A stretch of DNA of 32,000 nt from Candidatus Saccharimonadota bacterium (GCF_000185985.2 NC_014909.2:420001-452000); one strand, 5' to 3'; shown: positions 19,596-24,455, numbered from the stretch's first letter. Numbers and translations: made by a program. Notes: a model not told the origin generated them from the letters alone.

Positions 19596-21788
19596 TTATA
19601 ATATAATTTCTGCTTTAATCCACCATGTTCGACCTGATTCATAAATAAGTTTTTTTGAGTTATATTGAGTTACATCATAATTATTTAAAAAATTATTTAC
19701 ATGTTCTCTATAAGTTTTATTCAAAATATTATCAATACCAACAGTATATGTATAATAATTAGGAATTCTCCATGCTAAATATGCGGATATTACCCCAAAA
19801 CCTGGCGTATGCAATATATCTTGTGTATATTTTTTAAATAAAAAATTATAGGAACAAAAAGTAGATAAAAACTTTTCTATATATTGCGATGATGAGACCA
19901 ATCTCCATAATATTCCTAAATTATAATTTTGTTTTTTAAATTGACATGTAAATTTCCCTTCTAAAGGAGGGATAGTAGGTAATATACATTGATTATCCTT
20001 ATTTATACCCCAAGCCCATGATATATTACTTTTACCAAGCCAATAATCATTTAATTTATAACTTACACCCATTTCAGTCCCACATATATTAGCATTCGAA
20101 TTCTTCATACAATCAACAATATTGTCCTGTATCAAATTACTATCAACATTATTGTTATATTTATAACAAATAAAATCTTTTATATACCCTATATAAGACG
20201 TTATCCATCCATCTATTTTTGTTTTTTTTAAATGAGCCCCCATATCTATCTGAATAGTTTTTTCAGGCTTTAATTGAAAAATTAGATTCTTACTTTTTAT
20301 ATTGTCATTAAACCTATTTAATATCAATTCCCAATAATCAGGCAAACGTTGACATACACCTACTCCAAGATAATATAAAAATTCCGGATAAATAACACCT
20401 TCATATCTCATAAACCCAGCTGGATATGTCACATCTCTATAATACACAGCATAACAATCATCGTGTATATCAACAACACTATGTTCTATTCTAATTCCTC
20501 CGATAATTTTTTTATTTGGTAACATATTAAAAATAAATTCATTAAATATTCCTGAATCTAAAGAATAATTATGTATTTTAGAATCACACATCAATTGAGT
20601 ATTTTTTCTATATTGATTAATTTGAATATCAATGCCGCTATAAAACTGAAAATTTTCCCATTGACATGTAATAAAGCCTCGAGACCCCCATAAAGACCGT
20701 TCTACATCATTAACATTAGTTTTACATTGAGTAGAACAACAATAATATTGTTTTGGAATCAATGTCGATGATAAATTTTTAACAAAAGATACCGTAGAAT
20801 CAATCATGATATGATGTATATGATGATACCAGGATTGAATTTCAATTGAATTTAAAACATCATTAATACCTGGGGTTTCTATTCTAAATCCATAACTTTC
20901 TCTAGCAAAACATAATCCATCCATACCTGTAACTGCATAATTTACTCTAGAATTCCCTTGACCTAAATTAATATCTATAAATGTATTAGATCTAAAATTA
21001 AATGATAAAATAGCATCTGCACTCCACTTGTACCACGCAGAATGCACTGGGTGATTATTGCCATCATAATAATTTCCAGAGTAATTACAATTACCTATCA
21101 ATCTAATATAGCCATATTTGTTACCTAATATACTGTCTATATTTCTATATATGCTATCATTCGATCCAACAATCATACTACTACAAGTTTTGATTTGTGG
21201 TGAATTAAAATGGGGATGATAACGCCGAAATTGTAAAATACCTCCTGAAGTTACTGGCCCCCATAACACCGTTTGAGGACCTTTAATTATATTTAAAATA
21301 TCAAAAGTCTCCGGAATAATATAAGCGGTAGCAGGATCCATGCCAGAACAACAAGCTCCAATTATTTCACCAGAATCCGCTAAAATACGTATTTTGGAAC
21401 TAGTTATTCCTCTTAATACAAAATTATTATTAGTCCCCCCATTACGAATCATAGAAAATCCTGGTATATTTTTCAAATAATCAACAGAATCAGTAATAAA
21501 TGAATAATGTTGTAATGATTTTATAGAATCAGACACAGAAATCAATGAAGTATTTACTTCAGCAATGATAGTAACAACTTTGTTATTTTTACTATCTTTA
21601 AATAACGGAGGAAATTTTTTACAAGTAAGCGTTGAAGACGTTTTATGTTGCAATGAACCAGATGATAAATAATCATCATTGGCGTAAATGTTATTAGTTA
21701 TGCATAAAATGCATATACATGTCGCTATATATAAAACAAAATAAATTACGCTTTTTAAAAAATCATTAGATACATATTTCAGTATCAC
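19596..21788 (-). CDS. TonB-dependent outer-membrane receptor, OprC/NosA-like (putative copper receptor)
   Basis: Signal peptide (..CITNNIYA), TonB-box-like KVVTIIAE, and plug domain (NIPGFSMIRNGG..FVLRGI.., IIKGPQTVLWGPVTSGGILQF). A long beta-barrel with an aromatic-rich C-terminus (GRTWWIKAEIIL) follows. The plug carries C146-C-S-G-M150 (comp 21339..21353, TGT TGT TCT GGC ATG). The barrel carries YHHIHH-I-M (H326-I-M328, comp 20805..20813). This is the CxxxM...HxM pattern reported for Pseudomonas OprC. GTG start preceded by a strong SD. Confidence 0.85.
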   Translation of the reverse strand: MILKYVSNDFLKSVIYFVLYIATCICILCITNNIYANDDYLSSGSLQHKTSSTLTCKKFPPLFKDSKNNKVVTIIAEVNTSLISVSDSIKSLQHYSFITDSVDYLKNIPGFSMIRNGGTNNNFVLRGITSSKIRILADSGEIIGACCSGMDPATAYIIPETFDILNIIKGPQTVLWGPVTSGGILQFRRYHPHFNSPQIKTCSSMIVGSNDSIYRNIDSILGNKYGYIRLIGNCNYSGNYYDGNNHPVHSAWYKWSADAILSFNFRSNTFIDINLGQGNSRVNYAVTGMDGLCFARESYGFRIETPGINDVLNSIEIQSWYHHIHHIMIDSTVSFVKNLSSTLIPKQYYCCSTQCKTNVNDVERSLWGSRGFITCQWENFQFYSGIDIQINQYRKNTQLMCDSKIHNYSLDSGIFNEFIFNMLPNKKIIGGIRIEHSVVDIHDDCYAVYYRDVTYPAGFMRYEGVIYPEFLYYLGVGVCQRLPDYWELILNRFNDNIKSKNLIFQLKPEKTIQIDMGAHLKKTKIDGWITSYIGYIKDFICYKYNNNVDSNLIQDNIVDCMKNSNANICGTEMGVSYKLNDYWLGKSNISWAWGINKDNQCILPTIPPLEGKFTCQFKKQNYNLGILWRLVSSSQYIEKFLSTFCSYNFLFKKYTQDILHTPGFGVISAYLAWRIPNYYTYTVGIDNILNKTYREHVNNFLNNYDVTQYNSKKLIYESGRTWWIKAEIIL

Positions 21789-21792
21789 TATA

Positions 21793-21799
21793 TCCTCTT
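21793..21799 (-). promoter_or_regulatory. Shine-Dalgarno sequence (AAGAGGA) for the TonB-dependent receptor gene
   Basis: The mRNA sense reads AAGAGGA-TATA-GTG. This is an unusually strong purine-rich SD for this AT-rich window and supports the GTG at 21788 as the start. Confidence 0.5.
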
Positions 21800-22135
21800 T
21801 TTTTATATAATTATCATTATTATACTTTCATATGACTAATAATTAGTTATATATTAAAAAATATTTATTTTTAACCCTTAATTATGTAAAACAATTTTTA
21901 TATATTATTCTGATTGTTATACTTTAATGTTATAATAACGTAACATACTTATAAGAGTCTATCAAAATATATAATATATACTAGATTTTTAAGATATCTT
22001 ATTGTATTCTTTTTAATTAATTAATAAGTAAATAACGGATACCTTAAGGGGCCGTATTTTAAAAGATATACATATGCTCTTTATATGACATATATATAAT
22101 TCTTAGTTTGTTTATGTGTAAATGGGAATTATTAA

Positions 22136-22777
22136 ATGCAATATATTATTCATTCGAATATAATTTTTGATACTACAGAATATATATTAAAATCATTACA
22201 CAATGACAACAATTTAATAAAATTATCTAATTCTTCTGGCCGAATTTTAGAAGAACTGATCAAACATCGTCATACCGGATCCCCAGTTACTCGAGAACAC
22301 TTATTTACAGTAGTGTGGAAATCCTACGGGTTAGAACCATCTCATGGAAACTTAAATCAACAAATTAGTTTAATAAGAAAAAATTTAGCCATTTTTGGAG
22401 TAGATTCATCTTCTATTCTAACTATTCCTAAACGAGGATTAAAATTAAATAATCAACTAACAATAAAACAAATAGAAAATGATCCCGAAAATAATTATAT
22501 TTCCCCGAATCAATATGCTCATGATTCTACCAAATCCAACATTGACAAAAACGACAATATTACATCACGTAACTCTAATCCGTTTCATACTCAAACCTAT
22601 ATAAAATACATTATTACCTTAATAATTACACTATTTTTTGTATTTACCATAGGTTTTATATATCTATACAATAAAACCAACAGTATCAAATTATACTGTT
22701 GTAAAGAAATCAATTCATGTAATATCTGTACTTTTCCTATTATATCAGAATTCGAGTTTCAAAACAATGAAACATAA
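22136..22777 (+). CDS. ToxR/CadC-like membrane-anchored transcriptional regulator: OmpR/PhoB-type winged-helix domain, one TM helix and a short Cys-rich periplasmic tail
   Basis: aa ~25-105 (LIKLSNSSGRILEELIKHRHTGSPVTREHLFTVVWKSYGLEPSHGNLNQQISLIRKNLAIFG...ILTIPKRGLKL) align with the CadC/ToxR DNA-binding domain (..LEPRLIDLLVFFAQHSGEVLSRDELIDNVWK....VVTQSISELRKSL...IATVPKRGYKL). There is a single hydrophobic helix, YIKYIITLIITLFFVFTIGFIYLY (nt ~22598-22669). The tail is 35 aa: NKTNSIKLYCCKEINSCNICTFPIISEFEFQNNET. GGGAA lies 8 nt upstream of the ATG. Confidence 0.75.
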   Translation: MQYIIHSNIIFDTTEYILKSLHNDNNLIKLSNSSGRILEELIKHRHTGSPVTREHLFTVVWKSYGLEPSHGNLNQQISLIRKNLAIFGVDSSSILTIPKRGLKLNNQLTIKQIENDPENNYISPNQYAHDSTKSNIDKNDNITSRNSNPFHTQTYIKYIITLIITLFFVFTIGFIYLYNKTNSIKLYCCKEINSCNICTFPIISEFEFQNNET

Positions 22778-23024
22778 TATCTTAAAACTATTTAAGTATA
22801 AATTAAAAATATAAAAACTATTATAATGCTACTCTGTATATAAAAACACGTATCATTTATATACATAAATCATTATTTCTCATACATATAAAGACAATTT
22901 TTTCTAATTTACTAAAATTATTATCATGGTGATTAATTAATAAATAACTTCATTAAATTATCTTCTATATACTTAATAGAAATTAATTTAAATATTCACT
23001 TGCATCACAATATTGTTCTATACA

Positions 23025-23705: not shown

Positions 23706-24455
23706 TTAAATATTTGAATTAAAAATAATATTTTTCTATACTTACAATTGAAATTAAGATTATATTACGTATCATTATTAAAAAATAAATAACTTAACGA
23801 TCATTTTAAAATAAATATGTATTTCAATACAATTGAATATATATACTTCTCATGCATCAAACTAATATCAATAAATTTAATTCAATAATTTATTAAAAAT
23901 TTTCTATTTGTAGAAACGATTCAATGAGTATTAATCAATTAAGTAAAACATAACTATTATAGCCTATTCATAACTCATCTAATTTTTCATAACACATGAT
24001 ACAACTATTCACTAGAATAATGATATTATATCATTAATTTTTCGCATAACTTTAACTAATTAAATAGCCTTGTCATGTTTTTATAACACAAAATATTTAA
24101 AATAATATAAATACAAATTATGTAAAGAACATATAAACATTACGTCATAACCAATCATATCTATCATAATTATTTATACATATATATAAATTGATAATAA
24201 AATAACTTATAAATATAATATTTTATTATAAATATACAAATATATACATGTTAATATGTATTAATAAAACAATTTATTATATTATTATGTAAATATCTAA
24301 AATATTTACATTGTAAACAGAAAATTAATTTAAAAAAATAAATATATGTTACAGTACTTACTTAAAATAATTTAAAATATTTTATTTTTTATATGTGAGT
24401 TATTTAATAAAAATATTACAATTATGATTATATATACAATATTCCATATTAATTC

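Follow-up and report, generated by a model that had tools for sequence, protein, structure and literature searches.

A YqeI-type membrane-tethered regulator with a truncated, cysteine-rich tail in the ant endosymbiont Blochmannia

Results

The yqeI gene of Blochmannia vafra and its product

We analysed a window of 32,000 nucleotides from the genome of Candidatus Blochmanniella vafra BVAF (NC_014909.2:420001-452000), and all coordinates given here are counted from its first letter. The gene in question, yqeI, is an open reading frame (ORF) of 213 codons at 22136-22777 on the plus strand, with an ATG start and a GGGA 8 nt 5' of it. Its product is 100% identical to the annotated protein BVAF_393 ("yqeI") of this organism. 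As described below, the protein has lost most of its predicted periplasmic domain together with the partner gene of its family, and the remaining stub carries a conserved cluster of cysteines. The gene is organized as follows.

22136-22777, plus strand: yqeI-family gene (BVAF_393), predicted membrane-tethered ToxR-type transcription regulator; from the ORF, protein identity, the published gene list (PMC3017870) and ratios of non-synonymous to synonymous substitution rates (dN/dS) of 0.13-0.27
22136-22465, plus strand: cytoplasmic winged helix-turn-helix (wHTH) of the OmpR/PhoB type, amino acids (aa) 1-110; from PF00486, the ToxR profile match, AlphaFold2 (AF2) and Foldseek
22466-22582, plus strand: poorly conserved, low-confidence linker, aa 111-149, with a predicted local distance difference test (pLDDT) value below 50 for aa 125-150 and the highest dN of the gene
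22583-22678, plus strand: single transmembrane (TM) helix, aa 150-181 in AF2, hydrophobic core aa 159-177; from AF2 and hydropathy
22679-22774, plus strand: residual, predicted periplasmic tail, aa 182-213, which by alignment corresponds to strands β1-β2 of the YqeI periplasmic domain and stops where its first helix begins
22697-22729, plus strand: CC-x5-C-xx-C cluster of C188, C189, C195 and C198; from column counts, codon variation and a motif dN/dS of 0-0.08
22775-22795, plus strand: premature stop private to B. vafra, followed in frame by the relic codons YLKTI and the ancestral stop; from codon-by-codon comparison with B. floridanus (locus L008)

A reading made from the sequence alone (hereafter the sequence-only reading) had recognized the ToxR-type order of wHTH, linker, single TM helix and short C-terminal tail, and this order is borne out by Pfam, profile, AF2 and Foldseek results. 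The Pfam hidden Markov model Trans_reg_C (PF00486) matches aa 28-102 with 27.4 bits, barely over the cut-off of 26.2, and AF2 models aa 1-110 with a pLDDT of about 95. A profile of the family matches the DNA-binding domain of ToxR (8b4b, E 4.7e-14) and, more weakly, that of CadC (5ju7, E 7e-5). With the AF2 model of a long-form relative, Foldseek retrieves ToxR-DNA complexes at a TM-score of 0.89 relative to the target; these matches are limited to the DNA-binding domain, and the periplasmic fold was not matched to VtrA or ToxR structures. The protein has one hydrophobic segment only (Kyte-Doolittle value 2.63 over 19 aa, 159-177), situated in a helix that AF2 predicts for aa 150-181 with a pLDDT of up to 97. 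The tail behind this helix comprises 32 aa, NKTNSIKLYCCKEINSCNICTFPIISEFEFQNNET, folded in the AF2 model into a hairpin (186-191/194-198). It carries all four cysteines of the protein exactly where they had been described, the codons lying at 22697-22702 (C188, C189), 22718-22720 (C195) and 22727-22729 (C198). An N-in/C-out topology is expected from homology and from the need for a cytoplasmic DNA-binding domain. Counts for the positive-inside rule fit N-in in the long forms of the family; in the short forms they give a net charge of +1.9 on each flank of the TM helix, which is equal and so ambiguous.

BVAF_393 is a relative of YqeI rather than of CadC

The nearest relatives of BVAF_393 are 35 other Blochmannia proteins of 197-229 aa, among them the orthologue Bfl390 of B. 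floridanus (62% identity). Next come longer proteins, 267-291 aa in length, which belong to Sodalis, Wigglesworthia, Acerihabitans, Biostraticola and related Enterobacterales and are called YqeI where they are named (Sodalis, Wigglesworthia). The alignment with the "YqeI" of Sodalis sp. Psp (47% identity over 97% of the query, E 7e-46) runs through the TM helix and the hairpin. YqeI of E. coli K-12 stands further away within the family (32% identity, E 1e-13, over aa 1-111), and a 1:1 orthology between its gene and BVAF_393 is improbable. The sequence-only reading had taken CadC as its yardstick. This choice did not hold: the NCBIfam equivalog model of CadC (NF007540) reaches 20.1 bits where its cut-off is 400 and covers the DNA-binding region only, and the tail has 32 aa, so that membership in the CadC family was rejected.

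Kinch et al. (2022, PMC9214523) assigned the YqeI/MarT/GrvA group to the "co-component" systems that resemble VtrA/VtrC and ToxR/ToxS. In these, a wHTH regulator bound to the membrane has a periplasmic domain of the fold ββ-α-βββ and is paired with a lipocalin-like protein; this partner, YqeJ or FidL, is encoded directly downstream, the C-terminal strand of the regulator docks on it, and the last two strands of the periplasmic domain are joined by a conserved disulfide (PMC9214523). The AF2 model of the long-form relative P0039 (pLDDT 76.8) has a TM helix at 146-170, β1 at 178-183, β2 at 186-190, a helix at 196-210, β3 at 221-226, β4 at 244-250 and β5 at 256-266, in agreement with the published fold of YqeI. 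BVAF_393, whose homology to YqeI-type regulators extends beyond the winged helix, falls into the YqeI/MarT/GrvA branch within the ToxR/VtrA co-component regulators.

The periplasmic domain is truncated and the partner gene is lost

Alignments show that all 36 Blochmannia copies end about 55-60 residues short of the long forms. Of the ββ-α-βββ domain with its docking strand BVAF_393 retains β1-β2 only, ending where the periplasmic helix would start, and most other Blochmannia proteins end near the end of that helix. The claim of a reduced sensor was therefore right in kind but not in size: the periplasmic domain of this family measures about 100 aa and was cut to 32-42 aa in Blochmannia, not from several hundred residues to 35. 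The tail of B. vafra is five residues shorter through a TAA stop at a position where B. floridanus has the leucine codon TTA, and the relic codons are still legible at 22778-22795.

A FidL-like gene (PF15941) lies directly 3' of yqeI in every free-living locus examined. The fidL/yqeJ partner is absent from all eight Blochmannia loci examined (the window and seven others); tblastn searches of these loci with the deleted C-terminal 75 aa and with fidL (word size 2, E up to 10) gave nothing below E ~0.1, and the gene lists published for three Blochmannia species do not contain yqeJ. The loss of the lipocalin partner had escaped the sequence-only reading, as had the copper-receptor neighbour OprC described below. 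Wigglesworthia has a full-length copy of yqeI and no partner. Sodalis sp. Psp, a reduced symbiont (L001 8856-9092, P0036), has a full-length yqeI followed by a decayed fidL remnant detected by tblastn, and its protein has lost exactly the cysteine pair of the last two strands (C248S, C259Y). It represents an intermediate stage of the same decay series.

Selection on the short form

dN/dS values were estimated after Nei and Gojobori from Blochmannia pairs that are unsaturated at synonymous sites. Over the whole gene they amount to 0.21 (L024/L025), 0.135 (L026/L027), 0.135 and 0.265, and for residues 185-200 to 0, 0, 0.03 and 0.08, so that the tail motif is at least as constrained as the DNA-binding domain. 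The flanking intergenic DNA can hardly be aligned between the same species; a Shine-Dalgarno sequence and one upstream block are conserved before yqeI. Judged by these patterns, yqeI is truncated but not a pseudogene, because the short form is common to all 36 copies and is under purifying selection. The sequence-only reading had reasoned that truncation relative to intact orthologues would make the gene a pseudogene remnant; the truncation is real, but this conclusion does not follow from it, and the pseudogene reading is rejected by the dN/dS values and the genus-wide conservation.

A cysteine cluster that arose in the Blochmannia lineage

Conservation of the four cysteines in orthologues had been proposed as a check and was found: C195 and C198 are present in 36 of 36 Blochmannia sequences, C189 in 35 and C188 in 33. 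Cysteine makes up 1.66% of the proteins of the window, giving a probability of 2.3e-5 for at least four in a given stretch of 11 residues; a cluster of this density somewhere in the 9,003 aa of the window was obtained in 117 of 2000 shuffles. In one genome the cluster is therefore only marginally unusual, and it is the conservation across orthologues that gives it significance.

C195 is ancestral, being present in all 36 short and all 14 long forms. At the columns of C188, C189 and C198, which belong to the first β-hairpin, the long forms have F (14/14), F, L or M, and Y (14/14), respectively, and the three cysteine codons correspond to single-base changes from TTY, TTY and TAY to TGY. All four cysteine codons show synonymous TGT/TGC differences between species. 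The symbionts of the early-branching Colobopsis and Polyrhachis hosts have F or L at position 188, indicating that C189 and C198 came first; these two are also the gained cysteines that occur in every lineage, the early-branching ones included. In the long forms F180 and Y189 occupy the places of C189 and C198, and we infer from the model that they could be cross-strand partners if residues 184-185 form the turn.

Four periplasmic cysteines are conserved in the long forms (P0039 positions 186, 217, 248 and 259; 13 of 14 sequences), and of 128 representative homologues that have a TM segment, 115 contain exactly four cysteines in the tail. Truncation removed three of the four conserved ones (columns C217, C248 and C259) and left the ancestral C195, and the last-strand disulfide of the family is gone in BVAF_393. 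The count of four was restored in Blochmannia by non-homologous cysteines: 23 of the 36 short forms have four in the tail, five have five, seven have seven and one has three. Among 150 representative homologues no other compact tail with a cysteine cluster was found. Eleven of them have tails of up to 65 aa, most of which contain 0-2 cysteines and look like fragments; one (P0169) has four dispersed cysteines in a tail of 61 aa.

The divergent oprC gene and the intergenic region

Two further features are located upstream of yqeI.

19596-21788, minus strand: oprC (BVAF_392), divergent from yqeI, TonB-dependent copper receptor and candidate target; from TIGR01778 and the match to OprC in the PDB
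21980-22010, plus strand: sole block conserved in the region between oprC and yqeI; from an alignment of six Blochmannia species

The oprC product scores 418 bits with TIGR01778, below the cut-off of 472, and matches the structure of OprC (6fok, E 3e-109), and in this alignment the copper ligands CxxxM and HxM coincide. These ligands are kept in all Blochmannia, Sodalis and Biostraticola copies examined. The divergent pair of oprC and yqeI occurs in three flanking contexts, namely in Biostraticola tofi, in Sodalis-like contigs that still have fidL, and beside trxB in Sodalis sp. Psp and six Blochmannia. The pairing is therefore ancestral and older than the cysteine gains. It is not obligatory: L028 and L029, the symbionts of Polyrhachis and of Colobopsis obliquus, gave no oprC hit with tblastn and keep yqeI, and parallel losses of oprC and tonB within Blochmannia have been reported (PMC4389277). 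The gene oprC thus cannot be the only target, and dedicated regulation of oprC as the sole function of BVAF_393 was rejected on this ground.

The OprC proteins of Blochmannia (in the window and in L008 and L024-L027) have themselves gained cysteines, with 10-22 compared to 3-5 in those of Sodalis and Biostraticola. Among the conserved gains are a Cys in MDGLCF and a vicinal CC that follows HxM at a distance of about 25 residues (YYCCSTQC in B. vafra).

The conserved intergenic block lies between -156 and -236 relative to the ATG (-156 in the window). By our own reading of the hexamers it would fit a putative sigma-70 promoter towards yqeI (TAGATT, a 17-nt spacer, TATTCT). A consensus promoter scan does not list it, and that scan returned no more sites than in shuffled sequence. 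The search for an operator in the intergenic region gave nothing convincing, the block being promoter-like and not composed of ToxR-type direct repeats, and a 12-mer of it occurs once in the window, no more than by chance. A 34-nt direct repeat (21798-21831 and 21895-21928, 82% identity, 97 nt apart) in the oprC-proximal half is not conserved in other Blochmannia and therefore is probably an AT-rich chance match. Within yqeI, codons 182-189 contain a terminator-like hairpin on the minus strand (22678-22701; a 9-bp stem followed by a T-run; one found against 0.0 expected), which could terminate the convergent emtA transcript. By eye, the corresponding sequence of B. floridanus has no such inverted repeat.

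Gene content and other neighbours

According to its gene list B. vafra retains tonB, tolQR, rseP, dsbA (BVAF_621), dsbB (BVAF_439) and cyoABCDE, and no exbB, exbD, copA or yqeJ was found in the gene tables searched (PMC3017870). In these tables tonB and oprC are thus kept without exbB and exbD; TolQ and TolR might energise TonB. In L024-L027 the gene mntR is flanked by emtA and mnmA, and in L029 it is situated downstream of emtA (compare 23706-24455 of the window). It is absent from B. vafra, B. floridanus (L008) and L028, where tblastn detected no remnant. This agrees with the gene table, which lists mntR for B. pennsylvanicus only (PMC3017870).

Two losses of global regulators that had been noted in the window were seen again. 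Compared to Sodalis sp. Psp, lrp is missing between ftsK and trxB, and no ihfB-like ORF was detected beside rpsA. In E. coli, ihfB occupies the position between rpsA and msbA. At this place the window has an ORF of 100 aa with a GTG start (7095-7397, minus strand), which overlaps the start of msbA, has no NCBIfam match and may be spurious or a relic.

Discussion

Taken together, the patterns of sequence conservation suggest that BVAF_393 is a functional membrane-tethered transcription factor, which lost its partner and was reduced in size at the root of the Blochmannia lineage. As a rule, a small domain whose hydrophobic core is gone requires disulfides or metal to remain folded. We propose that thiol cross-linking of the stub, within or between molecules, substitutes for YqeJ in stabilising and/or dimerising the regulator, and we give this proposal an even chance of being correct. 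It is the most economical explanation, because three core aromatic positions were turned into cysteines, the count of four cysteines was restored and DsbA and DsbB are present in B. vafra. The cross-links would most likely be two disulfides made by the DsbA/DsbB pair. From the hairpin model C189-C198 is a candidate bond, and the other two cysteines might then pair within the chain or between two protomers. In this way the cross-link would replace the lost hydrophobic core and the lost partner, the stub would stay folded and/or dimeric, and the regulator would be kept stable and active without YqeJ. Its output, if it depends on anything, would follow the periplasmic thiol-redox or thiophilic-metal state and not a lipocalin-bound ligand. 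By analogy to ToxR, the winged helix would bind promoters from the membrane, with oprC as a candidate target that cannot be the only one.

Several points weigh against this proposal. Blochmannia lives in the host cytosol, so that its periplasm may be comparatively reducing. The modelled hairpin of BVAF_393 has a pLDDT of only about 55 and its DSSP register is one residue off that of the long form. Basic residues adjoin the TM helix on the tail side too, so the topology rests on homology. Literature searches yielded no target, binding-site or expression data on yqeI. Twelve of the 36 orthologues have an odd number of tail cysteines (5 or 7), and B. floridanus has no dsbA (PMC3017870) yet keeps the motif. 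The last two observations are easier to reconcile with free thiolates, metal binding or bonds between molecules than with a fixed intramolecular pair of disulfides.

Metal binding is also at the centre of the view that the stub is a periplasmic Cu/Zn sensor, an idea already contained in the sequence-only reading. The four thiolates would bind Cu(I) or Zn imported by OprC, occupancy would alter dimerisation or stability of the regulator, and feedback on the divergent oprC would make up a minimal copper-homeostasis circuit. We consider this unlikely. Several observations speak for it. The neighbour is an OprC homologue with an intact CxxxM/HxM copper site and has gained its own conserved CC, and the divergent pair has been kept through the different flanks in Biostraticola, Sodalis-like contigs, Sodalis sp. 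Psp and six Blochmannia. B. vafra has kept tonB and the genes of a copper enzyme, cyoABCDE, and the gene lists contain no copA string. Tail cysteine numbers are variable and often odd (4, 5, 7) and reach about 17% of the residues, as in metal-binding peptides, and in B. floridanus the motif persists without dsbA. On the other hand, the symbionts of Polyrhachis and Colobopsis obliquus, which have no oprC, keep yqeI with three of the four cysteines and another one, and both oprC and tonB have been lost repeatedly in the genus (PMC4389277). The pairing of oprC and yqeI is older than the cysteine gains, the long forms beside oprC having F, F and Y at these positions. Because C188 and C189 are adjacent, they would point to opposite faces of a canonical hairpin, and a single four-cysteine site therefore needs a dimer or a different fold; in B. 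vafra periplasmic DsbA would moreover tend to oxidise the thiols. A bolder version, which we regard as rather improbable, holds that after loss of the lipocalin co-sensor a new metal-sensing module of about 30 residues arose de novo on a ToxR-type regulator, in which a hairpin with at least four thiolates binds Cu(I) delivered by OprC and tunes copper import and other envelope genes.

The cluster might also cycle between reduced and oxidised states and report the redox conditions of the periplasm or the host cytosol, by analogy to CadC (C208-C272), ToxR and TcpP. Cysteine-controlled activity, dimerisation or proteolysis is established for these three proteins, the tail contains a CxxC motif, B. 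vafra has kept DsbA/DsbB and RseP, and constraint on the tail motif exceeds that on the remainder of the gene. However, the motif is equally conserved where dsbA is absent, and the same data fit a static structural cross-link, so that we think a reversible switch is quite improbable. Hardly credible is the remaining view, that yqeI is a functionless leftover or pseudogene with a cysteine cluster arisen by compositional accident. The protein is shorter than its free-living relatives, B. vafra has lost five more residues through its private nonsense mutation, and envelope proteins of Blochmannia are enriched in cysteine in general, OprC being an example. Against decay stand the intact ORF in 36 of 36 copies from a genus whose diversification has gone along with that of its hosts for about 40 million years (PMC4389277), the low dN/dS of the gene and even lower values of the motif, and the synonymous turnover at the cysteine codons. 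Added to this is the conservation of the Shine-Dalgarno sequence and the upstream block amid intergenic DNA that is barely alignable.

Among the known systems, YqeI/YqeJ of the second type III secretion system of E. coli (ETT2), MarT/FidL of Salmonella pathogenicity island 3 (SPI-3) and GrvA/FidL of enterohaemorrhagic E. coli (EHEC) are the closest. BVAF_393 has the same domain order and is homologous to these regulators over the winged helix, the TM helix and the first periplasmic hairpin (E 1e-46 with "YqeI" of Sodalis), and the invariant hairpin cysteine C195 is common to short and long forms. Unlike these systems, it has no partner gene and lacks the periplasmic helix and β3-β5, and with them the lipocalin-docking strand and the conserved disulfide of the last two strands; it has three new hairpin cysteines instead. 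ToxR/ToxS and TcpP/TcpH of Vibrio cholerae are likewise built around membrane-bound wHTH activators, and the DNA-binding domain of ToxR is the closest solved structure to that of BVAF_393. The periplasmic cysteines of ToxR and TcpP govern folding, dimerisation and protease sensitivity. In contrast to the Blochmannia stub of 32-42 aa, which has no partner, these proteins possess a folded periplasmic domain of about 90 aa whose stability needs ToxS or TcpH. The likeness to CadC of E. coli lies in the N-terminal wHTH, seen as the weak match of its DNA-binding domain, and the single TM helix; a parallel is also offered by the periplasmic disulfide that acts as a switch in CadC. The periplasmic sensor of CadC measures several hundred residues (the figure of the sequence-only reading; the NCBIfam model of CadC has 516 positions), and CadC works with LysP and cadBA; neither such a sensor nor these partners are present here.

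The gene itself is not new. In 2006 Bfl390 (yqeI) of B. floridanus was reported to have a wHTH at aa 27-104 and a TM helix at aa 149-171, and a response to membrane signals was suggested (PMC1360075). Both yqeI and oprC are named in the tables of the B. vafer genome paper (PMC3017870). The description of 2006 does not mention that the protein is shorter than in free-living relatives, nor the loss of the partner, the cysteine cluster or the OprC neighbour, and we found no earlier report of the truncation, the partner loss or the lineage-specific cluster in the literature searched. Searches for Bfl390, BPEN_401 and BVAF_393 returned no expression or functional data.

Blochmannia genomes encode very few regulators and no two-component systems (PMC1360075). 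Since yqeI is kept in all 36 recovered copies, it is among the few points at which sensing could still take place in these symbionts. The gene is a case of a signalling system that was miniaturised in an ant endosymbiont, and together with its relatives it provides a natural series for the decay and re-engineering of a co-component system. This series leads from the intact pair of free-living Sodalis and Acerihabitans via the decaying partner and the loss of the docking-strand disulfide in Sodalis sp. Psp and the full-length, partnerless protein of Wigglesworthia to the truncated form with compensatory cysteines in Blochmannia. If the cysteine stub suffices for stability or dimerisation, it would define the minimal periplasmic requirement of this class of regulators. 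If it binds metal or senses redox, it would be a newly evolved sensor, and in case a metal-sensing module did arise de novo, yqeI would be among the last signal-responsive transcription factors in an endosymbiont genome of 0.7 Mb.

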